DNA from: an uncultured Saccharicrinis sp.
GTDB lineage: Bacteria; Bacteroidota; Bacteroidia; Bacteroidales; Marinilabiliaceae
Direction: 5' to 3'
DNA: 64,000 nt
NCBI GenBank assembly: GCA_963675435.1
Contig: OY776216.1
Span: 4,518,082 to 4,582,081 of the forward strand
Part shown: positions 43,588-62,778 of the stretch, piece after piece
How positions within the stretch are numbered: position 1 is the stretch's first letter
How the letters are laid out: the number at the start of each line of letters is the position of its first letter
The notes under the pieces: generated by a model
Seen by the model: only the letters and a program-made list of their open reading frames with translations
What the model was told of the DNA's origin: nothing
Databases searched by the model: none
Program-made: the position numbers and the translations under genes

Positions 43588-43870
43588 AGTAGTATTATTA
43601 AACGTTAATAGACGTATTTAGCCGTTTATAAAACGGTTAGAACAAGAAATTGTAGGTAGTTTGCAAATAAAAATCATGAATGACAGACCTGTTATTTATT
43701 TAAACAGAATTCAAAAGGAAAGGCAGAAGAAACCATAATTGGAGATTGTTCTTATTTTAATGGAGTTTTACAACCTATTTGTAAATATTAACTAGGAAGT
43801 AGACCACCTATTAATTGAAAAGTATACCACTTATTAACAACGAAATTATTTATGGTTTCGTTACAAACGA

Positions 43871-45406
43871 ATGATAAGTATGTATACAAAACAAGAAATA
43901 ATAATAAAAAGCTATCGAGAAGGGAAAAGTCAACGTTCTATATCTCGCACCTTACAGATAAGCAGAAAAACCGTAAAGAAGTACATAACAGAGTATGAAA
44001 AAAAGCTTTCAGAATCAGAGGATAAAGAAACAGTAAGTGCCAATTATCTATCGACAGTACCAAAATATAAAAGCCGCTCTCTACACAGGAGAAAACTAAC
44101 CCAAGAAGTACAAGACGAAATAGATAAACTACTTGAAGTCAACCGGGAGAAAAAGCTTCAAGGTTTACGAAAGCAGGTACTTAAAAAGGCAGATATATTT
44201 CAGCAATTGCAATTACAGGGTTTTGAGATTGGCTATACAACTGTTTGCAACTATATCCGCTCAAAAGAAAAATCATCTTCTCCCAAAGAAGCTTTTATTC
44301 GACAAGTATATAGTCCGGGCAGTATTTGTGAATTTGATTGGGGCGAAATAAAACTTCGTATCAACGGCAAACAAGAGCGCTTCCAATTAGCAGTTTTCAC
44401 CAGTGCTTACAGCAACTATCGTCATGCCGTGCTATATTATCGTCAAGATACACTTGCGTTTATGGAAGCCCACGTATCTTTTTTCAATAAAACAAACGGC
44501 GTTTATGAGCAAATGGTTTATGACAACATGCGGGTTGCCGTGGCAAAATTTATTGGTCCTCACGAAAAAGAACCAACACGGGCTTTGCTTCAATTACGAG
44601 GTCATTACCAGTTTACTCATCGTTTTTGTAATGCTTACCGAGGCAACGAAAAAGGGCATGTGGAAAGAAGTGTTGAATACATCCGACGGAAAGCTTTTGG
44701 TGTAAAGGATGATTTCAACAGGCTTTCAGAAGCCGCAGAATATTTAAACACCATTCTGGAACGATTAAATAATACCAAACAAAAACAAAGTGGCAAAACA
44801 GCTTTAGAACTGTTTGAAGATGAGAAAGTGGTATTAGGGAAATTACCGGCTGTACCGCTTGTCTGTTCAGACCAAATACAATTGCGCGCCGACAAATATG
44901 CAACAATCAGTCATAAAACCAATAGGTATTCGGTACCGGACCATCTGGTAGGTCAATTTCTAGATGTTCATTTATTGAGTCACGAAATACATGTTTATCA
45001 TGAAAATAAAAAGATAGCCATACACACCAGAAATTACGGCAAGCACCAATGGATAATCTCTATAGAGCATTATTTGAACACTTTCAAGCAAAAGCCGGGA
45101 GCTTTGCCGGGTAGTTTGGCATTAGCAAGCAACGTATATTTAAAACAGCTCTTTTTAGACCATTTTCAAGAAGAACCACGAAACTTTATTGACCTGTTAG
45201 ATTATTGTCGTAAGTACCGCATAAGCGGCGAAAAACTGGAGAAATCGGTATTTCGATTACTGAGTACCGGTTCCGGTGGTATTACTATAGAAAAACTAAA
45301 AGCTGTATTGGGCAATAATGAATCATTTATTACACCCGAACAAAACTGTTCCATTGCTCAATTAGCAAAAAATCAATTGTCGGAAATAAGTGCATTAATG
45401 AATTAA
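43871..45406 (+). CDS. istA: IS21-family transposase IstA
   Basis: 511 aa with an N-terminal HTH (GKSQRSISRTLQISRKTVKKY) and a DDE core. Confidence 0.88.
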   Translation: MISMYTKQEIIIKSYREGKSQRSISRTLQISRKTVKKYITEYEKKLSESEDKETVSANYLSTVPKYKSRSLHRRKLTQEVQDEIDKLLEVNREKKLQGLRKQVLKKADIFQQLQLQGFEIGYTTVCNYIRSKEKSSSPKEAFIRQVYSPGSICEFDWGEIKLRINGKQERFQLAVFTSAYSNYRHAVLYYRQDTLAFMEAHVSFFNKTNGVYEQMVYDNMRVAVAKFIGPHEKEPTRALLQLRGHYQFTHRFCNAYRGNEKGHVERSVEYIRRKAFGVKDDFNRLSEAAEYLNTILERLNNTKQKQSGKTALELFEDEKVVLGKLPAVPLVCSDQIQLRADKYATISHKTNRYSVPDHLVGQFLDVHLLSHEIHVYHENKKIAIHTRNYGKHQWIISIEHYLNTFKQKPGALPGSLALASNVYLKQLFLDHFQEEPRNFIDLLDYCRKYRISGEKLEKSVFRLLSTGSGGITIEKLKAVLGNNESFITPEQNCSIAQLAKNQLSEISALMN

Positions 45407-45414
45407 AAAATAAG

Positions 45415-46170
45415 ATGATGAATACCATAAATGAAGATATAATCAAATACAGTAAAGAGTTACGGCTACCTGTTTTCAGAAGAGATTTTAAAGAGTTAGC
45501 CACAGAAGCAGCAAGCGGACAACTGGATTATGAAGAGTACTTGTTAAAGCTGATGGAGCGAGAGTATGAATTGCGTATAGAAAATCGAAAAAAGACGCAA
45601 ATACGTCTAGCTGGCTTTCCATCCAAGATGTACCTGAATCAACTGGAACGAGAACAGTTGCCCGATGATGCTCGCGCAAAACTCCCGGTATTAGAACGAC
45701 TTGATTTTATAAACTCTGGTCAAAATATCATACTGGCCGGTAATCCTGGCACCGGGAAAACTCACATCGCTATTGGTTTGGGCTTAAAAGCATGCCTTCA
45801 GGGATACCGTGTCCTCTTCACCTCTGTTCATCGGATGTTGACCCAATTAAGAGAATCTCAATCAGAAAGGACTTTGCGTCAATTAGAGCTCCGTTTTGAA
45901 AAGTATGATTTAGTAATCTGTGATGAATTTGGCTATGTATCATTTGATAAAACCGGAGCCGAATTACTATTCAATCATTTATCACTAAGAGCAGGTAGAA
46001 AGTCTACCATAATAACAACAAACTTGGGCTTTGACCGCTGGGAAGAAATCTTTGGAGATGCCGTTTTAACAGCTGCACTAGTCGATAGATTAACTCACAA
46101 AGCCCATTTGGTAAACATGAACGGCGAATCATACCGATTAAAAGAAACAAAAAAAATCTTAGCTAAGTAA
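45415..46170 (+). CDS. istB: IS21-family ATP-binding helper IstB
   Basis: 251 aa with Walker A GNPGTGKTH and Walker B LVICDEFGY. Confidence 0.9.
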   Translation: MMNTINEDIIKYSKELRLPVFRRDFKELATEAASGQLDYEEYLLKLMEREYELRIENRKKTQIRLAGFPSKMYLNQLEREQLPDDARAKLPVLERLDFINSGQNIILAGNPGTGKTHIAIGLGLKACLQGYRVLFTSVHRMLTQLRESQSERTLRQLELRFEKYDLVICDEFGYVSFDKTGAELLFNHLSLRAGRKSTIITTNLGFDRWEEIFGDAVLTAALVDRLTHKAHLVNMNGESYRLKETKKILAK

Positions 46171-46407
46171 AAATGAAACTTATAAAAAATCGTTCCCCGG
46201 TTCCTCTCCTGATTGGGGTACCCCAATCAGGAGAGGAATACCTTTGTCTTTTAAATCAAATGGTATACTTTTGAACTGAAATACTGGTATACTTTTCAAT
46301 TGAAAAAAACAACCTATTGATAAATCGGGTTATTATTTTGGTTCAATAGCTGAGGCTTATATAGAACTTGCTAAAGAAATGAAATATTCATTTTATTTAG
46401 GACAGAT

Positions 46408-46725
46408 GTGATATTACCTCAATATTATAAGGAGTATAAACCAAAGAACTATCTGTTTGAGGGACAGATTGGAGGTCCTTATTCAGCAGGAAGTGCCGGA
46501 AAAGTATTAAAAAGGGCTATAGCTAAGAGCGGCGTACAGCAACGAGGAGGTTTACATTCATTACGTCATAGCTTTGCCACACATTTATTGGAATCAGGCA
46601 CGGATTTGCGCTATATACAAGAACTATTAGGACATAACTCCTCAAAAACCACTGAAATATATACTCACGTGAGCAATAAATATTTACAACAGATTAAAAG
46701 TCCACTAGACGACTTAAATGTTTAA
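46408..46725 (+). pseudogene. 5'-truncated tyrosine recombinase (only the last ~105 codons; Xer-like, paralogous to 56023-56850)
   Basis: Contains [16 protein letters not shown] and the TEIYTHV catalytic Tyr region, and ends IKSPLDDL. An in-frame stop lies 12 codons upstream, and no N-terminal or core-binding domain is present. Confidence 0.8.
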
Positions 46726-46840
46726 AAAATAAATTATATTAGCTAGCAAAAATACATAAGACATAATAAAAATAACCGAAATACTATGTCGATTATTGAA
46801 ATAATTGACATAGTACTTCGGTTAGAAAGTAGTTAGCAAC
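46726..46840 (+). other. Candidate attI-like junction region: 46-bp hairpin (46776-46821), then GTTAGAAAG and GTTAGCAAC boxes
   Basis: CCGAAATACTATGTC-loop-GACATAGTACTTCGG. GTTAGCAAC (46832-46840) is the exact reverse complement of GTTGCTAAC at 52843-52851. Confidence 0.45.
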
Positions 46841-47185
46841 AAGGCCACTAAAGAAATAACGTAAGAGTAATTAAGGAGAATTTATTTTGTTTTTTGCCCT
46901 CACGTCTTTTCAACTAGAGCCAGCCCACAACCAGCACATTTGCAAATCGCACAACCCGACCCACAACCAAAATTTGCAAAAGAGCTGTTTTCCACCCACA
47001 ATAATATTTTTAAGGGATATCATTTTTTACTAGGACAACATTTGGCAGTCCTCCAAAGTAGCTTTGTGATTATTAATCATTTTAAATTTATAAGTATGAA
47101 AGATTTTAATAAATCATTGGCTACAGATTTGACTATTACTCAAAGTAAAGATTTTCGCTTATTTAATAAAACTATTGATGACACA

Positions 47186-48151
47186 ATGTTTGTAAGTCAG
47201 ATTATTAAATGCGTGAAGCAAATGTTATTAACTTTACTTTTTTCATTATTTACATTAAGTATTCAGGCTCATGAGTTGAGCATTAATTTAACCGAAAGCG
47301 GCACATTAGGAAGTGTAATTCAGGCTGAAGATAACGGCTATATTGATATTACAGATTTAACTATTTCAGGTCCAATGAATGCAAAGGATTTTGGTTGGAT
47401 AAAAAGAACAATTAGAACTTTGTGGTACTTGGATATTTCAAATGTCACAATTGAATCGGTATCAACTATCTTGGGTACAGATTATGGAACTTCAAGAACC
47501 TATCCTGCTAACGAAATACCTACATTAGCATTTGAAAACTCAGTTCTTGTTTCAATTAAATTACCAACCTCATTAAAATCGATTGGAGAAAAGGCATTTA
47601 ATGTATGCCGAGAACTGACGAGTATTGATTTAGAAAATACAAAGATTGAAACTCTGACTAAATTCTCAATAACAAATTCACATGAAATAGAAAATCTGAC
47701 AATGCCGGAGACTTTAAGGCAAGTTAATTATAGAGCATTAGCAGGTGTCACATTAAATACGTTAACTCTGAATTCCGAATTAGAATTAATAAAATCCGGA
47801 GCTTTTTATACGTGTTATTTGCAAAAAATAGTAATTTCAAAAGCCATTTCAGTTGAGATAACGACAGAGTTGCCATTTGAAGACGGAACAGAAGGATCAA
47901 ATACATTGGAAATAATAGCAAATTCTGAAGATATATTGGCTCACAGTTATTGGAGCACATTTGCGACAATAATCAATAATGACATCACAACAGATGTTCA
48001 TACTGTTAAATATGAAGAAAAAGCAGAAATAAAGGCAATTTATGATATGAATGGAAACAGTATGAGTATTGATTTAAACCAATTGCCTTGTGGTACATAC
48101 ATCATTGTGTATTCGGATGGACGTAAAGAAAAAGTATGTATTCAAAATTAA
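47186..48151 (+). CDS. BspA-type leucine-rich-repeat (LRR_5) protein with a T9SS-type C-terminal sorting domain
   Basis: The track ORF starts at TTG 46940 inside a palindromic repeat. Met at 47186 gives a signal peptide (MFVSQIIKCVKQMLLTLLFSLFTLSIQA). LRR units include IPTLAFENS...LKSIGEKAF. The C-terminal ...LPCGTYIIVYSDGRKEKVCIQN resembles a Por/T9SS CTD. Confidence 0.65.
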   Translation: MFVSQIIKCVKQMLLTLLFSLFTLSIQAHELSINLTESGTLGSVIQAEDNGYIDITDLTISGPMNAKDFGWIKRTIRTLWYLDISNVTIESVSTILGTDYGTSRTYPANEIPTLAFENSVLVSIKLPTSLKSIGEKAFNVCRELTSIDLENTKIETLTKFSITNSHEIENLTMPETLRQVNYRALAGVTLNTLTLNSELELIKSGAFYTCYLQKIVISKAISVEITTELPFEDGTEGSNTLEIIANSEDILAHSYWSTFATIINNDITTDVHTVKYEEKAEIKAIYDMNGNSMSIDLNQLPCGTYIIVYSDGRKEKVCIQN

Positions 48152-48163
48152 CTAGTAAAGGAA

Positions 48164-48412
48164 ATGACAAGATTTAAGTTTATGCTTGATGTTTGGATAA
48201 CTTTTTATTTTGAGAAAAAGTTTCATATCGGTCGAACAATTATAGAAAATGATATTGAAACAGTAGCCTGTGTTTCAGAAAGTGGAGATATAAAAATGAT
48301 TCGCTTTTCTCAAATCTGTAATCCAAAGCAACTGAAATTGCTAAAGGATATGAGCGTTTCAGATTATAAAGTTGATACAAGGGATATTGATTTTGATACG
48401 AATTCTAACTGA
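48164..48412 (+). CDS. Hypothetical protein
   Basis: 82 aa ORF starting 12 bp after the LRR gene. No recognisable motif. Confidence 0.4.
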   Translation: MTRFKFMLDVWITFYFEKKFHIGRTIIENDIETVACVSESGDIKMIRFSQICNPKQLKLLKDMSVSDYKVDTRDIDFDTNSN

Positions 48413-48448
48413 ATAAATGTTCGTTAATAATTAATACATCAATTACAG

Positions 48449-49357
48449 ATGATAGAAAATAGTAGCTTAACCAAGTTGATGCGTTGCAAAATAATAATTG
48501 AGGAAGTTGAAAAAGGCACTTATCCTACCGGAGAATATTTGCTCGATAGAATTGCTCGTTGGCTTGAAGGTTTTAAAGAGCTAATTCCTGATATAAAAAC
48601 AGAAATTTCAGAAAGGACACTAAGCAGAGATCGAAAAAATATTAAGGAGATTTTCAATATTGATATTAGCTACGATACAAAGCGAAAAGGCTATTATATT
48701 GGTGAGACCTATAATAAAAGCGATCGGATATTAAGAGCATTGGATGCAATACACGTTTTCTTCATTCAAAAAAACATACCAAATGCTAATAAACACATCC
48801 GGTTTGCGCCTCGTCAAGCTTCAGGTTCGGAACATTTTTTTCATATTCTGAAAGCCATTGAGGATAAAAAGAAGGTTCAGTTTTTTTACGAGCAATACGA
48901 AAAGCAAGAGGAAACACAACGAAGTGTATCTCCATTAGGCTTAAAAGAGTTTAAAGGCTTTTGGTATATGATTGCAGAAGACGAGAAAGGCATAAAAACA
49001 TTTGGTTTAGATCGAATCAAAGGCTTGAATATCACTTTAGAAAATGCGGTTTCCCGAAAGGGTTTTAATATTGACGAGTATTACAAGCATTGTTATGGAA
49101 TTGTTCGTTTACCAAATGACGAACCTCAGGAAATAATTATAAAAACCACTGCGATAAAAGCTAAATACTACAAGGCAAATAAACTGCATACATCTCAAAA
49201 TATAATAAAGACGCAAAACGATGACCAATACCCATATACAATTACGCTACACATGTATCTTACATACGATCTTCAACAAGAATTACGTTCGCATGGAGAG
49301 AAAGAGTTAAAAGTTATACAACCGGAGAATGCTCTGGAGAATGAAAGATATTTTTAA
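48449..49357 (+). CDS. HTH-WYL-domain transcriptional regulator (BrxR/CapW/PafBC-like architecture)
   Basis: 302 aa. N-terminal wHTH-like region (ISERTLSRDRKNIKEIF.IDISYD.KRKGYY). Central WYL-type beta-barrel (V.FFYEQY....QRSVSPLGLKEFKGFWYMIAED). C-terminal extension. Confidence 0.7.
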   Translation: MIENSSLTKLMRCKIIIEEVEKGTYPTGEYLLDRIARWLEGFKELIPDIKTEISERTLSRDRKNIKEIFNIDISYDTKRKGYYIGETYNKSDRILRALDAIHVFFIQKNIPNANKHIRFAPRQASGSEHFFHILKAIEDKKKVQFFYEQYEKQEETQRSVSPLGLKEFKGFWYMIAEDEKGIKTFGLDRIKGLNITLENAVSRKGFNIDEYYKHCYGIVRLPNDEPQEIIIKTTAIKAKYYKANKLHTSQNIIKTQNDDQYPYTITLHMYLTYDLQQELRSHGEKELKVIQPENALENERYF

Positions 49358-49389
49358 TGATTAGAAACTTATAAACTAATCTGAGTAAT

Positions 49390-50445
49390 ATGAAAATAGA
49401 AGAATTTAAAACATGGATGAAAGAATTTTGCGATTTTAATGATACTACAATAAATAATAGAATTTCAAATTGTCGAAAAGTAGAAAGTTGTTATGGCGAT
49501 TTGGAAGACCTTTATTGCAAAGATGGATGTACCAAGATTATAACTGCTCTGACATACTCGACCAAAGATGAAAAAGAAAACCTACCACCGAAGCATATTA
49601 TACCTATTGACGGAAATATAAGGAATGGATCAGCAACATTAAAAAGTGCTGTTAAACTGTATGTAGAGTTTGAAGAAGATTTTTCTGCTAAAGAGGAAAA
49701 AGAAAATGAGTTGATTGATGAGATGTTCGTTGAAGAGGTAGAAGATAAAATTGAGGATAAGAGCGATATGAAGAATGGTTTTAATAGTTTATTTGACCTA
49801 ATAAATACTTCAGAAGATGAATTTATTCGATTTTTTATTAAGAATACCCTTTTTATATCACCTGAGTACGTTGAAAATCAAGTGCAAGAACTTCATCAAC
49901 AGATTGAAAATGGAGAAAAGATACCGGTTCGATTTTCTTTAAAGATGAAAGAACATTTTAAGGCGACTGGCAAATATGTAAGCACCATTAAGAATCGAAA
50001 AGATGCGGTTAATATTAGTAGAGAATTTGATATTTATAGTAAAAGAAGATCAGGTGTAAAGGTGAAATTTGACTCTACCGGAAATAAATCTGTTGTCGAC
50101 GCTATTGAAAAATATACAAAATGTAGGGTAAGCACTTCTCAAAGTCACATAATAAACTACTCAATATCTCATGTTTGGGCACAAACTTTTGATCCGTTTT
50201 TCTTTTCATCTTTATGGAACATTGTATTAGTTCCAAGTTATTTAAATCCTATAATGGATAAACCTAAACATCAGCAAAAACTAAATGGTGAAATTCAAGG
50301 GCTAATAAAAGCCATTTGTAATGAATTGTATAATCCAAATGAGCTTTTGAATGATTCGTTGATTGAGATGGAGTCTGCAGTTATTTGTAAAAAAGCTAAA
50401 GAAATCATAGCAGAGGGATTAATTAATTATATAGATCTTAACTAA
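49390..50445 (+). CDS. Hypothetical protein with a C-terminal degenerate HNH (HNH_2/PF13391-like) nuclease motif
   Basis: 351 aa. SISHVWAQTFDP...LWNIVLVPSYLNPIMD resembles the HI.Pw...NgllL....fD pattern. The middle is acidic. The domain call is from memory of the family pattern only. Confidence 0.45.
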   Translation: MKIEEFKTWMKEFCDFNDTTINNRISNCRKVESCYGDLEDLYCKDGCTKIITALTYSTKDEKENLPPKHIIPIDGNIRNGSATLKSAVKLYVEFEEDFSAKEEKENELIDEMFVEEVEDKIEDKSDMKNGFNSLFDLINTSEDEFIRFFIKNTLFISPEYVENQVQELHQQIENGEKIPVRFSLKMKEHFKATGKYVSTIKNRKDAVNISREFDIYSKRRSGVKVKFDSTGNKSVVDAIEKYTKCRVSTSQSHIINYSISHVWAQTFDPFFFSSLWNIVLVPSYLNPIMDKPKHQQKLNGEIQGLIKAICNELYNPNELLNDSLIEMESAVICKKAKEIIAEGLINYIDLN

Positions 50446-50456
50446 GAAGAAACATA

Positions 50457-50870
50457 ATGGCAAAAATGTATAAGGTGAGGGTTAAAGGAACTGCTCAACT
50501 AAATGGCCCTGTAAAAGTAGACAAGACAGTTGAAATGGAAGAGCAGATGGCAATACGATTTAACGGAGCTGATCGTTATTCAGTAATTGAGTCATTTGTG
50601 CAGACTCATTACCCTGGAGTACAAATACCAAGCATTAGAGGTTTTGGTGCAGAAGTAACCCCTATAAAGGAAGCAAAAACTCCAAAGTCAAGAAAAGCAA
50701 AATCTAAATCTAAATCATCAAGAAGTACTCCATCAACAAAAGGGTTAAGCACTAAAAAGTTAATAGGTGGTGCTATTGTGGCAGCAGTTGTTGCTCCAAT
50801 AGTAAAAGAGGTCATTGGTGATGTAATTGATGAAGTAAAGGATGTACTAAAAAAAGCTAAGAAAAAATGA
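50457..50870 (+). CDS. Hypothetical small protein (globular N-domain, Lys/Ser-rich linker, hydrophobic/amphipathic C-terminus)
   Basis: 137 aa, 11 bp after the previous stop. Its stop overlaps the next start (ATGA). Confidence 0.45.
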   Translation: MAKMYKVRVKGTAQLNGPVKVDKTVEMEEQMAIRFNGADRYSVIESFVQTHYPGVQIPSIRGFGAEVTPIKEAKTPKSRKAKSKSKSSRSTPSTKGLSTKKLIGGAIVAAVVAPIVKEVIGDVIDEVKDVLKKAKKK

Positions 50871-51727
50871 TAAAACTAAAGCAAAGCTTATCCAAGATAG
50901 ATAAGGATAAGATTAAAGAATCTGCGATTGTTTTTTTATCTAATCTCAAAGAGAAGGTAAGTATTCAAGATTTAGAAAAAGTAAATAATTTTTTACCAAA
51001 TATGAATAAAGGGGTATTACAGGAGGTTTGGACAAATGTTGGTGATTTGTGGGCTTATGTAAATAATAAGGAAATTTCAATTGTTGAGAAAACTCTTCCT
51101 CTTGCAGCTTTAGTATATGTCATTAGTCCAATAGATACGATTCCTGATGGAGTCCCAATTGCTGGTTTGATCGATGATGCTTCAATTATATCTTTTATTT
51201 GTGCTTCAATTGCTTCAAAATTAGCTATTGTAAATTCAAATGACTCTTCAATAGAAAACGTAAATAACCTTATGAGTATTGAGGGGAATATCGGAATTTC
51301 AAATCCTAAGGAGAAATTAAATGTATTAACTTCTATTTTAACTCATGCTGCATATGCTGATGGAGAAATGAGTTCTATAGAAGAAGAAAAGCTTAGAGAA
51401 ATAGTAGATTTTTTTGTTTTTTCTGAAGAAGGTTGGTTTTCTACACATGAGGATTTTAATAAGGAAGAAATCTGTGTAATAATTGAGAAAACAATAAAAC
51501 AACCTCTTTCATTGAAGCAAATAATTGAGTTTGTAAATAATGTTAATGAAGATGAAGAGCAATGGTATTTTTATGCTTATGCAGTAGTAGCTTGTGATGA
51601 TGAAATTAATGCATCAGAGAGAGATTTCTTAGATCTTTTTGCCGAAAAACTTAATATTTCCAAGTTTGATGTTAGCAATATTGAAAGGAGCTTTGAAGAA
51701 GTTTGGACAATTACTGTAGAAGATTAA
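50867..51727 (+). CDS. DUF1232 (YkvA-like) membrane domain fused to a TerB-like domain
   Basis: 286 aa. SPIDTIPDGVPIAGLIDD is the DUF1232 signature. HAAYADGEMSSIEEEKL and VACDDEINASERDFL look like TerB/DjlA-N repeats. Confidence 0.6.
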   Translation: MIKLKQSLSKIDKDKIKESAIVFLSNLKEKVSIQDLEKVNNFLPNMNKGVLQEVWTNVGDLWAYVNNKEISIVEKTLPLAALVYVISPIDTIPDGVPIAGLIDDASIISFICASIASKLAIVNSNDSSIENVNNLMSIEGNIGISNPKEKLNVLTSILTHAAYADGEMSSIEEEKLREIVDFFVFSEEGWFSTHEDFNKEEICVIIEKTIKQPLSLKQIIEFVNNVNEDEEQWYFYAYAVVACDDEINASERDFLDLFAEKLNISKFDVSNIERSFEEVWTITVED

Positions 51728-51779
51728 TAATTCTGTTAATTTTAAGAGCGTTTTGTTCTAAATGATTGCAATTCTGCTT

Positions 51780-51968
51780 TAAGGAATATACAAGTATTAT
51801 TAAGGAGGAAGTGTATGGCTATAAGGAACAGAAAAGCAATCGTAAGGAACGCATGGGACACTTTAAGGAATGGAAGGGTAGCCTTAAGTAGTACAAGGGG
51901 AACCATAAGGAATGGGAAAACAACTGTAAGGAATTAACGAGCACCTTTAAGGAGGTGATAAGTTTTAT
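51780..51968 (+). repeat. Nine exactly phased 21-bp units, each starting TAAGGA(A/G) (one TAAGTAG)
   Basis: Unit starts at 51780, 51801, 51822, 51843, 51864, 51885, 51906, 51927 and 51948. Only the heptamer is conserved. A 40-codon ORF (ATG 51815) runs through units 2-8. Confidence 0.85.
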
Positions 51969-51991
51969 TTTTTTTAACCTAAACCATTTTT

Positions 51992-52651
51992 ATGGCGACA
52001 AAAAGAACATTATCAGAAGCAGAAACTCTTGAAATGTACAGAGTAGCATTAGAAAATGCAGTAACACAACCCGAAATTTCTACAGTTATGGCAGAACTTG
52101 GATATGACTCAGCCTTAATTGAAGAAGGAAAAGCAACACTTACAAAAACAAGAAAAGCTTATGATGCTAATAAAGTAGAAGATGATGAAACATCAGTAGC
52201 TTATTCTACTTTCTCAAGTAAAAAAGAACATTTAGAAGACATCTTCTCTCTTCACCGTAAAAAAGCAAAAGTTGTTTTTCGCAATGACGCAACAACAATG
52301 GATAAATTGGCAATTACAGGTTCAATTCCACGTGCATACGTAAAGTGGTTAGAAACAGTAAAGAAGTTTTATAGTGTAGCATTAAGTGATGAGACAATCC
52401 AAACTAAGTTGGTTAGATTAAAGATTACAAAGAAAGACTTGACTGCTACAAACAAACTGATTTTAGAATTAGAAACAGCACGAGCAGAATATCAAAAAGA
52501 AAAGGGAGAGTCACAAAATGCCACAAAAGCAAAAGATGCAGCATTCGCTGAAATTGATGATTGGATGAGCGAGTTTTATGCAGTTGCAAAGATTGCATTG
52601 GAAGATAGTCCACAACTATTAGAAGCCTTAGGAAAAACAGTAAAAAGCTAA
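51992..52651 (+). CDS. Hypothetical helical protein
   Basis: 219 aa, Lys/Glu/Ala-rich. No motif recognised. Confidence 0.45.
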   Translation: MATKRTLSEAETLEMYRVALENAVTQPEISTVMAELGYDSALIEEGKATLTKTRKAYDANKVEDDETSVAYSTFSSKKEHLEDIFSLHRKKAKVVFRNDATTMDKLAITGSIPRAYVKWLETVKKFYSVALSDETIQTKLVRLKITKKDLTATNKLILELETARAEYQKEKGESQNATKAKDAAFAEIDDWMSEFYAVAKIALEDSPQLLEALGKTVKS

Positions 52652-52749
52652 TGGGATAACGTCCCCGAATTGTAAGCACATTGGCAAGTCGCACAAACAG
52701 CCCACAAGCCAAAACTTGCCAAAGAGCTTACAATGCCAACCCAATCTTA

Positions 52750-52775
52750 CCGCCTGAGAGGGCGGTTTGAGTTTT
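52750..52775 (+). terminator. Rho-independent terminator
   Basis: CCGCC-TGAGAG-GGCGG followed by TTTGAGTTTT. Confidence 0.55.
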
Positions 52776-52842
52776 CCCCACGCACAAACAAAATAAAAGC
52801 TCATGATTCAAGGTGAGAGCAGTCAGAAGAATAAAAAGCCCA

Positions 52843-52979
52843 GTTGCTAACATGCCATAATAAAAAATAGCGCAGGCAGTGATTTTAGGAGGTTTTGAAT
52901 TAATAATTATCTTTATCACAGTCAGCAAGGAAAGTGCTGCGAATTGCGCTACTTTTCATATGGCAAGACCGTTATGGGC
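52843..52979 (+). other. attC-like site A (about 135 bp imperfect palindrome)
   Basis: R'' is GTTGCTAAC. L'' ATGCCATAATAAAAAATAGCGC pairs with L' GCGCTACTTTTCATATGGCA. R' is GTTATGGGC. Confidence 0.7.
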
Positions 52980-53013
52980 AATATCATGAGCGCCACGAAT
53001 AAAACATAAAAAA

Positions 53014-53667
53014 ATGAAATACGACAAAGAAAAGTACAAGATTTGGAACTGGAAAAGTCCTGTGATATTGCATTGGATAATAAATCCTGGATTTGTAATT
53101 AATGAGTTGATTTTAGGGCAGACTATCCCGAAAGTAATGTTAATAGAACGGGAAGGGAAAAAGCCTTTTTATCAACGCTCGTTAGTACCATGTCCTCACT
53201 GTGGAGAATTACATTCAGGGTTAAAGTATTCTGCAGCGAACAAGACAGCATTTAAAAACTGGTTTGGTTTTTACTGTGACAATTGCAAAGAAATAATTCC
53301 AGTACAGAGAAATCTGACTTCATTCATTATATTGACAATTACTTTTCCTATTTGGGGATGGTTTAAACAAACAATAAAACAAAAGTGGTTAGACAAACAA
53401 CCTGAAAGATATAAAAACTTGAATCTTGAAATTATTGAAAAGAAAAATACAACGAAGAATTGGTTAAAATCAGGACTTTTCTTAGGACTATTCATGTTTA
53501 TTGCAATGCAAATTATTTTCCCATTAATTAAGAGTGAGGAAATTACTAAGAAAAATATTTTGATTGGAATACCATTATGGCTTATTTGCGGACTTGTTTG
53601 GGGATTAACTATGAAATGGTGGATGAATAAAAGGGGAAAAGAAAATACAGCCCATAACAATGCATAA
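53014..53667 (+). CDS. Cassette ORF: membrane protein with an internal zinc-ribbon (CPHC...CDNC)
   Basis: 217 aa. The attC R'' box GCCCATAAC lies inside its last codons. Confidence 0.5.
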   Translation: MKYDKEKYKIWNWKSPVILHWIINPGFVINELILGQTIPKVMLIEREGKKPFYQRSLVPCPHCGELHSGLKYSAANKTAFKNWFGFYCDNCKEIIPVQRNLTSFIILTITFPIWGWFKQTIKQKWLDKQPERYKNLNLEIIEKKNTTKNWLKSGLFLGLFMFIAMQIIFPLIKSEEITKKNILIGIPLWLICGLVWGLTMKWWMNKRGKENTAHNNA

Positions 53668-53847
53668 TAAGGCATGTGGGGAACCGTGATTCGCGTGCGG
53701 TGGTGATTTCTATTTGCCCGCCTAATGCTTTAAAAGTTACTTTGTGTTGTTAAATAAGTCCCTTGTAAAAGCATTAGGCTCAGTGAGGTTTGGGAAAGGG
53801 CGACAATTTCAATCCCCACACAGCCTCATATGCGAGCCGTTGTGGCC
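53650..53847 (+). other. attC-like site B (about 195 bp)
   Basis: GCCCATAAC-AATGCATAATAAGGCATGTGGGGA... pairs with ...TCCCCACACAGCCTCATATGCGAGCC-GTTGTGGCC. The internal arms CCGCCTAATGCTTT and AAAGCATTAGGC also pair. Confidence 0.7.
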
Positions 53848-53949
53848 AATTATACCTATTCTAGAGAAATTGAATTTTTCACTTAGTAAATACTAATGTC
53901 TATTATTGGTCGAGACTATATTATTAATAACATAACTTGAATAATTAGT

Positions 53950-54507
53950 ATGATTAAAATAAATGAATATAAATTATCCTCTTCAATATTATTTAGCTGT
54001 ATTATATTGATAGTGTCGGCAGTGTCATGTTTAAATAAGAATAGAGTAAGGAAATATACAGAGGAAGAGGAAAAGTTTAAGGCAGTTGTAATCAAATCTT
54101 GTGATAATTCTATAGCTAATGAAGGTTTTAAGATAGACAGTAAGTTGCTGTATGGACAATGGGAAGAATCTATAGTGTGGGTGCAGAATCAAGATTTAAC
54201 AAGAACAGGAATTAGATATATTTATCTTCGCTCTGAATATGAATTTATTAATAATGCACATTTTGGTTCGAAATTTTTTTTCAAAGATTCTTTGCTTGAT
54301 CTATATGTTGGGAAATTTAAACTTATAGAAGAGGGGACTAAAATAGAAATTATGAGCAATCTTAGAAATGATTTTGATTTTAAGAATGGAGATACTATTA
54401 GACAAGCAATTCATCGGGTTCATTTATTAAATGATTCTATATTAAGAATTGAGGAAGATCCTCGATCATGCAGGAGTGGGACAATAGTAGAATATAGAAG
54501 AAAATAA
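53950..54507 (+). CDS. Cassette ORF: hypothetical secreted/lipoprotein-like protein
   Basis: 185 aa with an N-terminal hydrophobic segment ending VSAVSC. Confidence 0.45.
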   Translation: MIKINEYKLSSSILFSCIILIVSAVSCLNKNRVRKYTEEEEKFKAVVIKSCDNSIANEGFKIDSKLLYGQWEESIVWVQNQDLTRTGIRYIYLRSEYEFINNAHFGSKFFFKDSLLDLYVGKFKLIEEGTKIEIMSNLRNDFDFKNGDTIRQAIHRVHLLNDSILRIEEDPRSCRSGTIVEYRRK

Positions 54508-54817
54508 CAGGCCACAACACTTAGAATATAATTAATCACGAACTGCCCAAAAAAGTCCCATCAAACCATCAGAGTGATTCATTATATTTGTTGTTGAACG
54601 GAACCGGGATAAGCGAGCCCATTGTATGGGGATTGATATGAAATGGGTCTTTCATTTATGCTTGGTAAGCATAAAACTCCAAAGTTAAAACAGAAAGTTT
54701 GGGTAAAAAATCATTAAAATAAAGAGTTAAAACCACCTCAATGTATAAATCGACAGTTGATTTAGCTCTTTTTGTTGGTTATAAGACATACCTTTCCCAT
54801 TACACCAAAGGCGGCGT

Positions 54818-56026
54818 TTATGATATAGAGGCAGATTGAGTTGATTTTGTATTTTTTATTGAGTTGGGACTACCTCTGATAGCCGGCTTAAAAGAGGCTA
54901 TACGTTGCATGGTGCCTTGTTTACATTTTGGGCATTGATCGTGAGGATGGCCAAAAAGCAGCACAAATAATTCCTTCCAAGGGATCCCTTTTTTAGATTC
55001 CGGGGAGCAAGCATTAAATATTTTCCGGATGATCTCTAAGCACAGTTTCTTTTTAGAGGAACCTAGAAACCCATAATGCCTTATTTTCATAAAAGCGGGA
55101 GGAAGTATATGCATGGAAAGTCTTCGCAGAAACTCAAAATAAGAAAGATGCATCACATCCACTTTAGCGTTTTTGTAGTTGAGCCACGAAAAATACACAT
55201 TATTATCATCCAGGCTTTTAATACGCTGGTTACTAATTGCAACTCTATGAGTATACCTAGCCAAGTATTCCAGCACTTGCTTAGAATTGTGCATGGGTAA
55301 TTTAGCATATACCACCCATTTATTTTTATAAAAAGGATGCAGGTATTTACGCTCTGGTTCAAAAGTAGTTTTTAAAGTAATGGTTCCCTTATTGTGTAAG
55401 TCCATCAGGTAATCGCAAAACTTACCTCTAAAAACAGCACTTAAGGCTTTAACAGGATATAAAAACTTACCTTTACTTTTTGTATTTTTCCATTTGTTTT
55501 GAGGGGTTAAACCACCGCCCGGCACAATGCAATGTACATGTGGATGAAAAACCAGGTTTTGTCCCCAGGTATGCAAAATGGCAATCATACCGGTTTGAGC
55601 GCCCAAATGTTTATAATCCAGAGCAAACTGTTTAATGGTATCCCATGCTGCCCTAAAAAGTACATTGTACATATCTCTGGGATGATCTATAAACAAAGGA
55701 TTTAGCTGTTCGGGAACGGTAAATACCACATGAAAATATTTGATGGGTAAAAGATCTGATTCTCGATCTATCAGCCACCTTTCCTTTTTCAGACCATTAC
55801 ATTTAGGGCAGTGCCTGTCTCTGCAACTATTGTATGAATATTGCTCATGACCACATTCTGAGTTGTTACATTTATCCTGATGATAGCCTAGAGCAGCCGT
55901 TCTGCAATTTCCCAGGTTTGTAAACACCTTTTTCTTATGCGCATTTAAATGTCCGGCCTCAATCACACTGTGTTTATGATCCCTGATAATAGCACCAATA
56001 TCAAATATGGGTTTACTATAGCTCAT
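54818..56026 (-). CDS. IS91-family (rolling-circle, HUH Y2) transposase with an N-terminal zinc-binding domain
   Basis: 402 aa with the cysteine cluster CRDRHCPKC, the HUH motif HPHVHCIVPGGG and YLARYTHRVAIS (Y2 region). Confidence 0.88.
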   Translation of the reverse strand: MSYSKPIFDIGAIIRDHKHSVIEAGHLNAHKKKVFTNLGNCRTAALGYHQDKCNNSECGHEQYSYNSCRDRHCPKCNGLKKERWLIDRESDLLPIKYFHVVFTVPEQLNPLFIDHPRDMYNVLFRAAWDTIKQFALDYKHLGAQTGMIAILHTWGQNLVFHPHVHCIVPGGGLTPQNKWKNTKSKGKFLYPVKALSAVFRGKFCDYLMDLHNKGTITLKTTFEPERKYLHPFYKNKWVVYAKLPMHNSKQVLEYLARYTHRVAISNQRIKSLDDNNVYFSWLNYKNAKVDVMHLSYFEFLRRLSMHILPPAFMKIRHYGFLGSSKKKLCLEIIRKIFNACSPESKKGIPWKELFVLLFGHPHDQCPKCKQGTMQRIASFKPAIRGSPNSIKNTKSTQSASIS

Positions 56027-56850
56027 CGTTGCAGCCTGTCTAAAGGCGAAATCATAGGGTTTGATTTTAGGTTGTTGCTAATTTGCAGGTATACCATGGT
56101 GGTTCTGATATCATCGTGCCCCATCATTTTTTGTATAGACACAATGTCAACGCCAATTGCCAACAAGTGTGATGCAAAAGCATGTCTCAAAGAGTGAGGT
56201 GTAAAGTGCTTTTCAATGCCAGACCTATCCAGAGCATATTGAAAACCCCACTTTACAGCCTCGTCGCTATAAGGTTTACCTTTATACCTGCCATTAAATA
56301 AATATACCTGCGGTTTAAATTGATGTAAATAGTGCTTTATTTCAGGAATGAGTGATTGGGCCAAAACAGCGTATCTGTCTTTATTGCCTTTACTGTCTTT
56401 AATATAAATACGATGGTTTTTAAAATCGAGATGCTCAATTTTAAGGTTGATAATCTCACTTTTGCGCAAACCAGCTGAATAAATAACTTTTAGTAATAGT
56501 CTGTGCTTTGGACTTATGGCAGCATTAAATAATTGCAGCAGTTCTTTCCCGGTAGGGATCAAGGGTAGATACTTTGTAGCTTTAGGGTAAGGTACATCAG
56601 AAATAATATCAATGCGCTTATACACGCTTTTATACATAAAACGCAGCCCCTGTAAGTAATTTCTGATGGTAGACCGACTCAGCTTTTGATCGTTTTTAAG
56701 ATACAGCAGAAACTCATATATTTCCATTTCCGAAAGCTCATCAGGTAGCTTACCGGAAAATAAGCAGAGTAGCTTAGTAGAACGCATATAATTAGCAATT
56801 GAGCTATTAGAAAAATGCGCTACTTCCATTCTTACATGCAGATTGTGCAA
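56023..56850 (-). CDS. Tyrosine recombinase (Xer-like), translationally coupled to the IS91-like transposase
   Basis: 275 aa from a TTG start. Motifs: AGLRKSE (Arg I), KGNKDR, HSLRHAFASHLL, MMGH, MVYLQ (Tyr). The frame continues open a further 14 codons upstream of the TTG. A nearby ATG is one frame off across an A8 tract. Confidence 0.85.
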   Translation of the reverse strand: MHNLHVRMEVAHFSNSSIANYMRSTKLLCLFSGKLPDELSEMEIYEFLLYLKNDQKLSRSTIRNYLQGLRFMYKSVYKRIDIISDVPYPKATKYLPLIPTGKELLQLFNAAISPKHRLLLKVIYSAGLRKSEIINLKIEHLDFKNHRIYIKDSKGNKDRYAVLAQSLIPEIKHYLHQFKPQVYLFNGRYKGKPYSDEAVKWGFQYALDRSGIEKHFTPHSLRHAFASHLLAIGVDIVSIQKMMGHDDIRTTMVYLQISNNLKSNPMISPLDRLQR

Positions 56851-57114
56851 TAATGCCTCAACACTCTTTGGTGTTGTTAAACTTTTTTTTCATCTTTAAT
56901 CAGTTTATTAAAATTGAAATACAAAGATGCGGTATTTTACCGTCAAAACCTCGTTGTCTACCGACGTAGGAGGTTTAGTTCAACATTTTGTATAAGTAAT
57001 GGCAGGTAATGTAGTAAATATCAAGGTTTGTAGCCCGCTCAAACTGCGCAGAAGTTTGCTAGTAAACTACCACGCAATCTGCCACTACTCATACAATTTA
57101 CCGTTAGCAGCTAT

Positions 57115-57648
57115 GTGAAAATGAAAATGAAAGCAAATATTATAATTATACTTATAATTTTAACTACAACAATTTCTTGTAAAACAAATAAAGAAATCAC
57201 AGGAAAATATCGTACAAATTTTCCAAGTTTAGGTTTTTTTATGACAGTGATTGATTTGAATCCAGATCAAACTTTTCATTTTATATTTTCAGGAGATTTA
57301 ACACATACGGAATTAGACGGAATTTATAAAATAAATAAACAGAATCTTTATCTTAGATTTAATAAATTAAAAGAAGAATATAATCCTCTTGTTTTTGGAA
57401 CTAAAGAAAATCCAGATACTATTTTAAATTTTGAAGATTGGCAGAATTCTCATAGTTATGACTTAAAAAATGAGAAAGGAATAGATTATCACTTAAAATA
57501 TAAAATTGGAAATGATAAACTTAAAATATACCATATTGAAAAAGGAAAAATAGTTCACAGAGCAAAGTGGTACACGGACAGAAAAAGATTTATTCTTTTA
57601 GGTCCAAATTATAAAAAGAAAAAATGGTATTTGAAAAAAATAGAATAA
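57115..57648 (+). CDS. Cassette ORF: hypothetical lipoprotein
   Basis: 177 aa (GTG 57115 or ATG 57121), with the signal IIILIILTTTISC. Confidence 0.5.
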   Translation: MKMKMKANIIIILIILTTTISCKTNKEITGKYRTNFPSLGFFMTVIDLNPDQTFHFIFSGDLTHTELDGIYKINKQNLYLRFNKLKEEYNPLVFGTKENPDTILNFEDWQNSHSYDLKNEKGIDYHLKYKIGNDKLKIYHIEKGKIVHRAKWYTDRKRFILLGPNYKKKKWYLKKIE

Positions 57649-57654
57649 ACCACA

Positions 57655-57848
57655 GCTGCTAACATCGTATAAATTCAATGCTGCCAATTAGTTACGTGGT
57701 ATTATCTACAAGTAATAAGCTCCGCTAATTTTATTTCCTTGCGGAAAGAAAATTTGCTAAATTGGTGCAAACAAATAAAATTAGCTATTTGCAAAATTGG
57801 AACGGTATTCTTTCAAATACGCACTGAAATTTATACACACGTAAGGGG
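57655..57848 (+). other. attC-like site D (about 190 bp)
   Basis: GCTGCTAAC-ATCGTATAAATTCAATG... pairs with ...CACTGAAATTTATACACAC-GTAAGGGG. The R' is degenerate, GTA instead of GTT. Confidence 0.6.
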
Positions 57849-57850
57849 TA

Positions 57851-58027
57851 ATTCCCCCTATAAACCTATAGGATTGATTTAAAATAAAGGTAATCAATCT
57901 TTTTAAGGCTAATTGATTTCTGAAGCTAACGTAAAACAGGCCAGCTGGAATTAGCTGAAAAATGACAATTGAGAGAAAATTATAAACAACTGAATATTAG
58001 TGACTATTCTTTACGTTAGTCAGAATT
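57851..58027 (+). repeat. ~180-bp repeat family 'P2', copy 1
   Basis: Shares CCCCTATAA(A/G)CCTA(T/G)AGGATTGATTT...AATCAATC...TTGATTTCTGAAGC(T/G)AACGTAAAA...TTTACGTTAGTCAGAAT with the copies at 58749 and 61503. Confidence 0.8.
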
Positions 58028-58065
58028 TCGCAAAAAATAATATAATCAGTAAGTAAAATATAGTT

Positions 58066-58608
58066 ATGAGGACAATATCATTAATTACTTTGATTTTAAC
58101 GATAATACTTGGATTGAGTTGCCAAATGAATAAGTCGAATCGTAAGATTGAAGTGAACGGATCAGATTTTAGTATCAAAACAACATCTACGGATAAAATA
58201 AATTCTCAAAAATATGGCGACCAATACACGACAGAGTCAACTTATGTGTCTGAATTACATAAAGACTCGCTAGCAAATATCATGAATATTTATTCTGTTT
58301 ATATCAAGATTTATGGTTTTCAAAAAGATATTATCGACACATTAAAGCAAAAAGATTTTGAGAAAGTCTTACCAAATTCAAGCACAATCAAACCAGACAA
58401 AATTACAAAAATCAAATTAAAAGAGATGATTGTCACACCTGACACTGAAACCATAAAACTTAAATACCAACTTGATAATTCCGATTATAGACATTTTATT
58501 GAATATGATTTACATATTTCAGAATCTATAATACTTAATAAACAACTTAATTATCTAAAATCTACGAAATATAAAGATACATCAACTTTAGAAATAGAAG
58601 TAAATTAA
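58066..58608 (+). CDS. Cassette ORF: hypothetical lipoprotein
   Basis: 180 aa with the signal LILTIILGLSC. Confidence 0.5.
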   Translation: MRTISLITLILTIILGLSCQMNKSNRKIEVNGSDFSIKTTSTDKINSQKYGDQYTTESTYVSELHKDSLANIMNIYSVYIKIYGFQKDIIDTLKQKDFEKVLPNSSTIKPDKITKIKLKEMIVTPDTETIKLKYQLDNSDYRHFIEYDLHISESIILNKQLNYLKSTKYKDTSTLEIEVN

Positions 58609-58614
58609 GAACTA

Positions 58615-58747
58615 CCCCTAACACGCAATAAATTTCAAGTGGCAGTGTTTATAATTAGTATGTTACGCTATTTCTATGGAGTAAGTATCAGCAGAAAGTA
58701 ATGCAGTTTCTAACGCCACCCGTAAATTTATCGCAAACGTTATGGGC
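58615..58747 (+). other. attC-like site E (about 130 bp)
   Basis: CCCCTAAC-ACGCAATAAATTTCAAGTGGCAG... pairs with ...CCCGTAAATTTATCGCAAAC-GTTATGGGC. Confidence 0.7.
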
Positions 58748-58748
58748 A

Positions 58749-58925
58749 ATTCCCCCTATAAGCCTAGAGGATTGATTTTGAAATAAGGTAATCAATCTCT
58801 TAAAGGTTTATTGATTTCTGAAGCGAACGTAAAAATGGTTAGCAGAAATGAGCAGAAAAATGATAAATTTGACTAAAATATAAACTACTGAATATCAGGG
58901 GGTAATTTTTACGTTAGTCAGAATT
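58749..58925 (+). repeat. P2 repeat, copy 2
   Basis: See copy 1. It begins 2 bp after the attC R' box. Confidence 0.8.
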
Positions 58926-59318
58926 ATCCTAAATGTCTGTTAGGATAAAAAAAATCAGCTTTGCAAGCTTATAAATTATCTAGGAAATGTAAACTATTAA
59001 ATTTGATATTAATTAACGTGCATTAAAGTGTTTAATTTCTATTGTTAATCTAAAATGTAGAAAAGGAAACTGTTGAATAAAAAAAAGAGAGAAATATAAC
59101 TAACACAAATAGTGGCATTTATTGGGATTATGGACGATTCTTAAAAATCTTTTATCGATTACAAAAAATAGGATCTAAAATAGGAAGTTTAAATATTACT
59201 AATCTAAATCATACGAAAGGTTTGACACAGGGCTGACCTCCCACTGTAAAAGAAATATGAGATTTAAATCCTTAAGAAATCATACTAAATATTTAGGCAA
59301 GATTTCCGAAATGCGAAA

Positions 59319-59783
59319 ATGAGTATTTTATTTAAAATAAAAAATGAAACGATGACAAATCAAACAGAAACACAAGAGAAAGAATTATATAAAGATAATT
59401 CAGTACGGATAACAGATAGAAGGTATGTAACGCCCTCATCAACATATTTTTTAAGAAATATTTCAAGCACGTACCTATCAACATTTCGACTAGAAGATGC
59501 AAGACCAATTTCAGCATGGACTATGGTCCCTGCACTAATGGGAACAATATTTGGTATTCTAATTATTAGTTTTGATGGCAGTATTTTACTAGGAGGAGCT
59601 ATAACAGTAGCTGCGATTTTTTTACTAGTTAAAGCAGTAAAAATGATTATATCTGACATGAAGCGTGTAGCAGTCACTTTAGATACAAATGGTGGTACAG
59701 TAAGAACAATTGTAACAAATGATCATGCATATGCTAATAAAATTGTGAATTTGATAAATGAGGCAATAGCACTTAGTAATTGA
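59319..59783 (+). CDS. Cassette ORF: hypothetical membrane protein (two central TM helices)
   Basis: 154 aa. No family recognised with confidence. Confidence 0.45.
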   Translation: MSILFKIKNETMTNQTETQEKELYKDNSVRITDRRYVTPSSTYFLRNISSTYLSTFRLEDARPISAWTMVPALMGTIFGILIISFDGSILLGGAITVAAIFLLVKAVKMIISDMKRVAVTLDTNGGTVRTIVTNDHAYANKIVNLINEAIALSN

Positions 59784-59925
59784 TTTATTTTGTAAACATA
59801 GAGGCGGTTGCGATTCTTTTAATATTCTATTGAATACACATTCGGCTGGTAACCTTTATGAAAATAACTAATGTGGGAAAATCATCGTATTGATTGATGT
59901 GATGAAACAAAAAGCCCATAACAAA

Positions 59926-61216: not shown

Positions 61217-61502
61217 ATGCATATAAGTCATGTGGGGTGCAGGTGATTCGCTTAGGGTTGTGATTTCAATATGTCCGCCCATTGCTTTTAAATCGACACT
61301 TTCTTATTAATTTAGCCTATTGAAAAGCAATGAGCTAAGTGGGTTTTTGAGAGGTCGGACTATTTCAATCCCCACACGCCTCATATGCGTATCGTTGGGT
61401 TTCATTCCCCACATCCCACAGAAAAGCAGAATTAAATTCTTAAGCTAACGTGCAAATTTAAAGGGGATTGTGCAATTTAAAATTTGACGTTAGTCACAAT
61501 TC

Positions 61503-61675: not shown

Positions 61676-61708
61676 TAAAAGCATGACACATAATTTAGAA
61701 TATAAAGA

Positions 61709-62681: not shown

Positions 62682-62778
62682 ACTAGAGCGCTAAAGATTG
62701 TAAAAGGAGAATAAACTAGAAATTTGAAGAATTATTCATTAGAGGTTTAATATGAATGCAAAATAAAAATTACTATGT

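Follow-up and report, generated by a model that had tools for sequence, protein, structure and literature searches.

The window, a 64-kb stretch of DNA (64,000 nucleotides) from an uncultured Saccharicrinis sp., contains a recombinase remnant on the plus strand (46399..46725) that corresponds to the C-terminal ~105 aa of a ~375-aa Xer-like tyrosine recombinase. The remnant ORF (46408-46725, +) carries the motifs HSLRH, LLGH and YTHV and a terminal SPLDDL, and it matched the Pfam Phage_integrase profile over positions 88-170 of 172 (E 9e-21). The HxxR motif, the His, the Tyr and the SPLD tail are retained, whereas Arg-I, the Lys and both the N-terminal and the core-binding domain have been lost. 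Because in-frame stop codons close the frame upstream, the GTG "start" of the ORF is an artefact. Using 26 intact relatives as tblastn queries, we found that homology begins at 46399-46414, at residue ~267 of ~375, and that no N-terminal recombinase fragment is present anywhere in the 64-kb window. From the upstream stops and the absence of an N-terminal fragment across 64 kb, we conclude that the remnant is 5'-deleted and lacks the catalytic Arg-I and Lys, and as these residues are absent it is predicted to be unable to cleave DNA. Judged from its sequence, the window's copy is dead, with ~270 first codons lost. A preliminary description of this DNA had proposed a truncated, 5'-deleted Xer-like gene ahead of the first cassette and on the cassette strand. 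The ORF, the Pfam match, the motifs and the closed upstream frame all agree with this proposal, and the late onset of homology bears out the deletion. Apart from the integrases of IS91 modules, there are no other Xer/IntI-like genes in the 64-kb window. Outside the window, we noted a 105-aa protein (P0001) that is 97% identical to the remnant; the remnant, already truncated, is probably present twice in the source genome, and the additional copy may head an array of its own. The organism falls within the Marinilabiliales, with 68% identity between one of its housekeeping proteins and a protein of Plebeiibacterium marinum.

Upstream of the remnant lies an IS21-family insertion sequence (43813..46301, +), with istA (43871-45406, +) and istB (45415-46170, +) identified by the Pfam matches rve/Mu-transpos_C_2 and IstB_IS21, and with terminal inverted repeats at 43813-43849 and 46265-46301. 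A 97-nt interval (46302..46398) separates the end of IS21 from the onset of recombinase homology, and it has no similarity to recombinases or to any of the loci that we fetched from other genomes. We considered a simple insertion of IS21 into an intact gene and rejected it: no N-terminal half lies beyond IS21, no target-site duplication was found at the IS21 flanks, and the 97 nt between the two are unrelated. Given the gap and the absence of a duplication, we conclude that the truncation is IS21-adjacent and not the result of a simple insertion. Further upstream of IS21, a ~517-bp non-coding unit is present in three tandem copies that are 79-95% identical (41068-42211). The 3-kb stretch around these units (40800-43800) contains no ORF of at least 100 aa and no Rfam match at the gathering threshold.

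Between the stop codon of the remnant and the first cassette lies a hairpin (46773..46824, +) whose arms measure 25 nt, with TAAC and GTTA at its flanks. Folded as DNA, the hairpin has an energy of -17.7 kcal/mol (z = -6.2), and none of 200 shuffled sequences was as stable. No T-run was found at this hairpin. The preliminary description had reported a hairpin-containing spacer ending at two boxes, and we located both downstream of the remnant: GTTAGAAAG at 46821-46829 and GTTAGCAAC at 46832..46840 (+). The exact reverse complement of GTTAGCAAC is GTTGCTAAC, the R'' box of the first attC site (52843-52851). On the strength of this match, we take the second of the two boxes, GTTAGCAAC, to be the functional array boundary, an attI-like crossover box. 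Cassette 1 thus starts at 46833, and the array begins 107 nt past the stop codon of the remnant, on the same strand. A hairpin is also found a few nt ahead of the GTT box in most of the 14 orthologous loci that were folded, and it would form part of an attI-like site.

The array extends from 46833 past 64000 on the plus strand. Cassette 1 (46833..52971) is 6.1 kb long and ends in a 137-nt attC site (52843-52979) with the R' box GTTATGGGC. Its approximately eight ORFs are co-oriented and include genes for a BspA-type LRR protein, a WYL regulator and a DUF1232/TerB-like protein, and of the genes in this cassette PADLOC recognised the WYL regulator only. The unusual size of cassette 1 could reflect a multigene unit, or several cassettes fused through attC decay. 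Cassette 2 (52972..53839) carries an ORF at 53014-53667 and an attC site at 53650-53847 (R'' GCCCATAAC, R' GTTGTGGCC). Cassette 3 (53840..54518) carries an ORF at 53950-54507 and the R'' box GGCCACAAC at 54510-54518; its attC site is broken directly after AAC, and the rest of the site lies at 56985..57111 (+), with the R' box GTTAGCAGC at 57103-57111. The remaining array (57104..63505, +) contains further cassettes and attC sites, with R' boxes at 57841, 58015, 58739, 58913, 61394, 61489, 61663 and 62672.

Integron-type insertion at G|TT can be recognised by a cassette start that is complementary to the R'' box of the same cassette. In addition to the first junction described above, we found this complementarity from GTTATGGGC to GCCCATAAC (53650), from GTTGTGGCC (53839) to GGCCACAAC (54510), from GTTAGCAGC (57103) to its complement GCTGCTAAC (57655-57663), from GTTGGGTTT (61394) to AAACCCAAC (62483), and from GTTAGGTGG (62672) to CCACCTAAC (63497). 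With the start/R'' complementarity running along the units, we conclude that the window holds a genuine attC-type cassette array. None of its cassettes is shared at the DNA level with the fetched loci. A scan of 40000-64000 against Rfam, a collection without an attC family, returned no matches.

Several other elements were observed in the array. An ORF-less 192-nt repeat occurs three times (57836-58027, 58734-58925 and 61484-61675), with 69-81% identity to a reference copy. The repeats sit just within cassette 5' ends, are flanked by AATT and each contain an attC-like palindrome, TCTGAAGCTAACGTAAA...TTTACGTTAGTCAGA. They interrupt the chain of cassette boundaries, and they may be a MITE-like array parasite or an 'empty cassette'. 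A motif of ~55 nt with an internal inverted repeat, CACATTKGCAARTCGCACAA..CCCACAA.C.AAAAYTTGC.AAAGAGCT, is found near the start of cassette 1 (46937-46990) and again ~110 nt ahead of its attC site (52676-52730); this motif may be regulatory, or may be what remains of a boundary between fused cassettes. At least five tandem 21-nt repeats of the TTAAGGAA type are located between two of the cassette 1 ORFs, at 51779-51953. An IS110/IS116/IS902-family transposase gene (60013-60726, -), apparently N-terminally truncated or frameshifted, also lies inside the array. In classical (proteobacterial) integrons, IS110 elements and group II introns are known to have members that target attC sites.

The attC site of cassette 3 is interrupted by an IS91-family module (54519..56984, -) consisting of a Y2 transposase gene (54818-56026) and a gene for a 275-aa integrase (56023-56850). 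A second copy begins at 63506, directly after the R'' box CCACCTAAC. Both copies abut the AAC of an R'' box, with the junctions GGCCACAAC|ACTTAG... and CCACCTAAC|ACTTAG... (54519-56984 and 63506-64000). Read on the minus strand, the module is itself cassette-like: it starts G|TTGAAC, abuts G|TTGTGGCC and ends in its own ~85-nt attC-like hairpin, in which R'' is GTTCAAC. A related locus, L001, contains at 13411-15324 a remnant of an IS91-integrase module with the exact bounds GTTGAACTA...TAGTTCAAC. These junctions suggest that the IS91-linked integrase inserts its module into attC sites.

The integrase encoded at 56023-56850 had been put forward in the preliminary description as a full-length paralog of the remnant. 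As a close paralog it does not stand: it is 39-40% identical to the remnant, its gene overlaps that of an IS91-family Y2 transposase, and it falls in a separate clade. The count of 59 residues between KGNKDR and HSLRH in this protein was reproduced on recounting; as the protein belongs to the IS91-linked subfamily, it is the wrong proxy for the remnant. We instead surveyed relatives of the remnant in 80 fetched loci, with one genome per species. Long-type relatives are 52-66% identical to the remnant and ~355-490 aa long, come mostly from Bacteroidota and have no IS91 transposase. IS91-linked relatives are at most ~50% identical and ~300 aa long, and an IS91 transposase gene follows directly. 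A rough neighbour-joining tree, built on 105 residues, separated the two groups and placed the remnant within the long type, beside L083.

The survey bears on one alternative explanation, that the remnant is a fragment of an IS91-associated integrase, carried as IS cargo and unrelated to the array. The window array does contain IS91 transposase-integrase modules twice, and the integrases of these modules are homologous to the remnant at 39% identity. However, neither the remnant nor its long-type orthologues have a Y2 transposase gene behind them, the remnant's closest relatives (52-86% identity) are of the long type and lack an IS91 transposase, and the IS91-linked proteins cluster apart. In addition, the remnant's own 3' flank bears the crossover box of the array. 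We consider this origin of the remnant extremely improbable.

The family to which the remnant belongs comprises more than 7000 clusters at E <= 1e-30, and some of its members carry the generic NCBI name "site-specific tyrosine recombinase/integron integrase". A family of ~175-aa proteins consisting of the catalytic domain only was considered, because the best 120 matches were all shorter than 180 aa, and was rejected: one such locus, L002, is split by a scaffold gap, and members of ~370 aa are abundant. In an alignment of intact orthologues, GLR..E, KG.KDR, H.LRH, LLGH and IYTH form invariant columns, so that the full catalytic set R-K-H-R-H-Y is present. The orthologue from Winogradskyella ursingii (L023) aligned to the Vibrio cholerae integron integrase VchIntIA (PDB 2a3v) in two blocks, 115-279/14-179 and 306-370/249-313. 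Between these blocks it has 27 residues compared with 70 in IntI, and the IntI-specific additional domain is thus absent. The preliminary description had drawn Xer-like spacing without the IntI insertion from the IS91-linked protein, and the same spacing holds for the true long-type orthologues. The best PDB matches of the L023 protein were to archaeal XerA. Family members matched TIGR02249, the NCBIfam model for integron integrases, in two stretches that skip positions ~181-238, with scores of 156-177 bits against a cut-off of 265, and they scored far below the cut-offs of all Xer NCBIfam models. The alignment to TIGR02249 reaches the last profile position through the SPLD tail, in keeping with the earlier remark that this motif is reminiscent of IntI C-termini. 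In an AlphaFold2 model of a 372-aa member (pLDDT 83), the core-binding and catalytic domains are preceded by an additional N-terminal domain of ~90 aa with a beta-beta-alpha-beta-beta fold, and Foldseek ranked XerA and IntI4 first for this model.

In most long-type loci a GTTRRRY box lies downstream of the recombinase stop codon, and in the usual arrangement a small hairpin stands a few nt ahead of it. We scored a locus as array-linked when the box has an exact 9-mer reverse complement downstream (......AAC), followed by a stem and a new GTT box. By this test, 15 of 43 sequences (the window and 42 fetched loci) are array-linked: the window, L001, L002, L005, L006, L010, L012, L013, L016, L023, L029, L032, L033, L034 and L046. 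A relaxed search, allowing one mismatch or a wider range, added three more (L028, L044 and L083). Control windows gave a box match with a stem in 6 of 100 cases. L016 and L001 have chains of six consecutive cassettes, L012 and L023 chains of four, and many chains stop only where the contig does. A permissive chain search, with 5/6 box matches and cassettes of up to 16 kb, returned mostly chance chains in AT-rich DNA and was replaced by the exact 9-mer and stem. Anchored palindrome scans for attC recovered few sites, the stems beside the R boxes being short and bulged, and an energy-based attC scan was noisy, with 39 matches compared with 16-20 in shuffled sequence at -7 kcal/mol.

The attC sites in these arrays are imperfect palindromes with lengths of ~65-235 nt. 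When 21 sites of ~130 nt were aligned, the only invariant positions were AAC, GTT and one further column; the stems are conserved while the sequence varies. Compensatory changes were found in 7 of 7 consensus pairs, a number that is low because indels misalign the outer stems in the MAFFT alignment used for RNAalifold. Exact 9-mer complementarity between cassette start and R'' box runs along chains of up to six cassettes.

Overall, a recombinase gene followed on the same strand by a box complementary to the first R'' was found in 22 independent loci, which come from a number of Bacteroidota orders, and also from a Spirochaetota MAG and a plasmid. In each of these loci the recombinase is encoded beside the attI-like site at which the array starts. 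On the complete Chryseobacterium plasmid NZ_CP041688.1, the gene, which encodes the intact orthologue WP_143853951.1, and a hairpin are followed by ATATAAACAA|GTTGGGAAA and at least four linked cassettes, and the array (L204) is interrupted by an IS110-family transposase gene and a group II intron encoding a reverse transcriptase. No boundary links were found upstream of the gene in any of the 15 fetched array-linked loci tested (15/15). Counted over all loci, there are 3 links in 221 kb upstream of the gene compared with 36 in 194 kb downstream. No second Xer/IntI-like gene is present within ~10 kb of any array-linked locus. The preliminary description had suggested a search for intact versions of the gene next to cassette arrays in related genomes, and had said that its idea of a cognate recombinase would fall if a canonical intI flanked a similar array elsewhere while the family otherwise occurred only as IS91 cargo, or if intact orthologues never neighboured such arrays. 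The family extends beyond IS91 cargo, and intact orthologues do adjoin attC arrays.

We also sampled in the opposite direction, starting from attC sites and independently of any protein. Metagenome contigs were scanned with a Flavobacteriia-type attC motif, which yielded 120 stretches totalling 590 kb. Tyrosine recombinases are present in four of these stretches. Three belong to the long-type Xer-like family and lie upstream of the array on the cassette strand with a boundary match: L140 is intact (400 aa), L155 is a decayed pseudogene, and L201 lies at the edge of its contig. The remaining recombinase, in L189, is of the CTnDOT type and unrelated. No canonical IntI was found in the 590 kb of attC-bearing metagenome DNA. 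In L155, which comes from a marine metagenome, the decayed recombinase gene (11723-11965) has an in-frame stop and degenerate motifs and lies 48 nt ahead of a valid box and chain.

The preliminary description had left two explanations side by side: an orphan array, or a Xer-like recombinase that is cognate to a non-canonical cassette system. The first can be stated as a CALIN-type array built by a canonical IntI that lies elsewhere or has been lost, with the Xer-like gene as a bystander. In the window, the array has many attC sites and no working recombinase beside it, and it fits the operational definition of such arrays (at least 2 attC sites, no IntI nearby). Since the window's recombinase is dead, the term orphan applies in this operational sense only. 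As an account of origin it is very unlikely: the exact junction recurs in the 22 loci described above, which are spread over several orders and include a Spirochaetota MAG and a plasmid; wherever this was tested in array-linked loci, the arrays always begin at the 3' end of the gene and never upstream; IntI-like genes are lacking both within ~10 kb of the array-linked loci and in the attC-first sample; and almost no IntI has been reported in Bacteroidota. The second explanation, a cognate non-canonical recombinase, is the one that the comparative evidence favours.

Not every member of the family is linked to an array, as no chain starts at the proximal box in ten long-type loci whose downstream sequence extends for 2 kb or more. 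The subclade of L017, L020, L021 and L031 has no chain at all. In the window's own clade, the gene has been broken repeatedly, in the window, in L001, in L083 and, by sequence, in P0006. In L001 (86% identical) an internal deletion fuses the core-binding domain to "DYYKEF", and in L083 (83% identical) the gene is 5'-truncated and adjoins a HipA gene. The repeated breakage could mean that the gene is dispensable. The remnants in the window and L001 are orthologous and are followed by wholly different cassettes, and we conclude that cassette content has turned over since the two diverged.

These observations bear on a further alternative, that the recombinase is tied to the array in a role other than cassette capture, such as inversion, stabilisation or dimer resolution, or as a mobile 'platform' gene that integrates at array ends. 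Such a role would suit a catalytic domain that is Xer-like and lacks the IntI insertion, the palindrome beside the box could be a duplex binding site, and the gene is often decayed while arrays persist. Against it, the first cassette starts exactly at the box and its far end is complementary to it, which is the signature of insertion at that place, and the cassettes behind the 86% identical remnants of the window and L001 are entirely different. We regard a non-capture role as unlikely, although less so than the other two alternatives. We conclude that the Xer-like family is very likely the cognate integrase of a non-canonical integron class, and that the window most likely contains a frozen array headed by a dead copy of this integrase.

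Compared with canonical integrons (class 1 and the VchIntIA superintegron of Vibrio cholerae), the arrays described here share the R''(..AAC)/L''/L'/R'(GTT..) imperfect palindromes of attC, the end complementarity at G|TT, a unidirectional array that starts at a site beside a tyrosine recombinase of the Xer/IntI branch, and a C-terminal SPLD tail that aligns to the end of the IntI profile. They differ in that the recombinase lacks the ~35-residue IntI insertion and has the extra ~90-aa N-terminal domain, in that gene and cassettes share one orientation, with the attI-like box on the 3' and not the 5' side of the gene, and in the hairpin that precedes the box in most of the folded loci. In addition, the attC spacer beside the R box is asymmetric (AAC-A... 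versus ...C-GTT), and the hosts are Bacteroidota, in which integrons were reported to be nearly absent. The 'inverted integrase' integrons of Treponema and others (PMC4889954) carry the IntI additional domain, because that study required a match to the IntI-specific C-terminal profile before calling an IntI, whereas the present family does not carry it. Archaeal XerA (4a8e, 5hxy) is the best match in sequence and fold to the core-binding and catalytic domains, and the family shares with XerA and XerC-XerD the Xer-like spacing between the Lys strand and HxxR. Unlike XerC, XerD and XerA, the family scores below the Xer cut-offs, has the extra N-terminal domain, and heads cassette arrays rather than residing at dif, and it does not have the features of a chromosome-dimer resolvase. 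The IS91 transposase and integrase modules (for example those of the window, and the 'TnpF'-type integrases on Acinetobacter plasmids) share a homologous Xer-like integrase with the SPLD tail, and those of the window sit inside attC sites. Their integrase, in contrast, measures ~275-320 aa, lacks the N-terminal domain and clusters in a clade of its own, and a Y2 (HUH) transposase always comes after it.

Published work sets a stricter definition. IntegronFinder recognises IntI by the additional domain of ~35 residues near patch III (PMC4889954), and Cury et al. 2016 concluded against counting as integron integrases those recombinases that lie near attC sites but lack the IntI domain (PMC4889954), which counts against our preferred reading. 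With IntegronFinder 2.0, Bacteroidetes were noted to have had earlier only In0 elements, plus one complete integron in Salinibacter (PMC9024848), and a 2024 preprint lists Bacteroidota among the clades previously without integrons. We found no paper describing such an integrase in the literature searched, which covered sources other than subscription journals. We also observed that many contigs (L028, L044, L046, L005, L002 and others) stop at an attC R' box, within a few tens of nt of one, or shortly after the recombinase gene, and that numerous database entries for this recombinase family are cut off at ~175 aa. Such arrays seem to be systematic break points in assemblies, and this may be part of why the system was overlooked.

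We propose the following model for the cognate-integrase reading. An intact recombinase of ~360-400 aa would comprise the N-terminal beta-beta-alpha-beta-beta domain, a SAM-like core-binding domain and an Xer/IntI-like catalytic domain without the IntI insertion. Its gene would lie on the cassette strand with the GTTRRRY box ~0-250 nt after it, usually preceded by the hairpin. Circular cassettes bearing attC, an imperfect palindrome of ~65-200 nt with the form R''...AAC / L'' / L' / GTT...R', would be inserted at the G|TT of this box, and each insertion would leave the first nucleotides of the cassette complementary to its own R'' box. The Xer-like recombinase itself would be the catalyst, and the hairpin and the N-terminal domain may have a role in site recognition. 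In the window, the gene has lost its ~270 first codons, beside IS21. Because this copy is dead, the array would be frozen unless an intact paralogue serves it in trans, and it would persist as a fossil that gathers IS21, IS91-integrase, IS110 and MITE-like insertions.

Among bacteria, integrons are the chief means of capturing gene cassettes. Present integron detection requires the IntI-specific domain, and by that test Bacteroidota look almost integron-free. We think it probable that the family represents a widespread, unrecognised integron class in Bacteroidota, with sporadic occurrence in Spirochaetota and on plasmids. Its marks would be an integrase that has a beta-rich N-terminal domain in place of the additional domain, and an attI that lies 3' of the gene and is flanked by a hairpin. 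On this view Bacteroidota would not be integron-poor, and attC-type recombination could proceed without the IntI insertion; it would also follow that IS91-integrase modules, IS110 elements and group II introns parasitise these attC sites like their proteobacterial counterparts. If the family works as proposed, a large phylum of marine, soil and gut bacteria would own integrons, some of them plasmid-borne, that escape present tools. It would be necessary to revise the dogma by which folded attC sites can be read only with the IntI insertion, and a large hidden pool of cassettes would become searchable, including toxin-antitoxin pairs, regulators and unknown genes.
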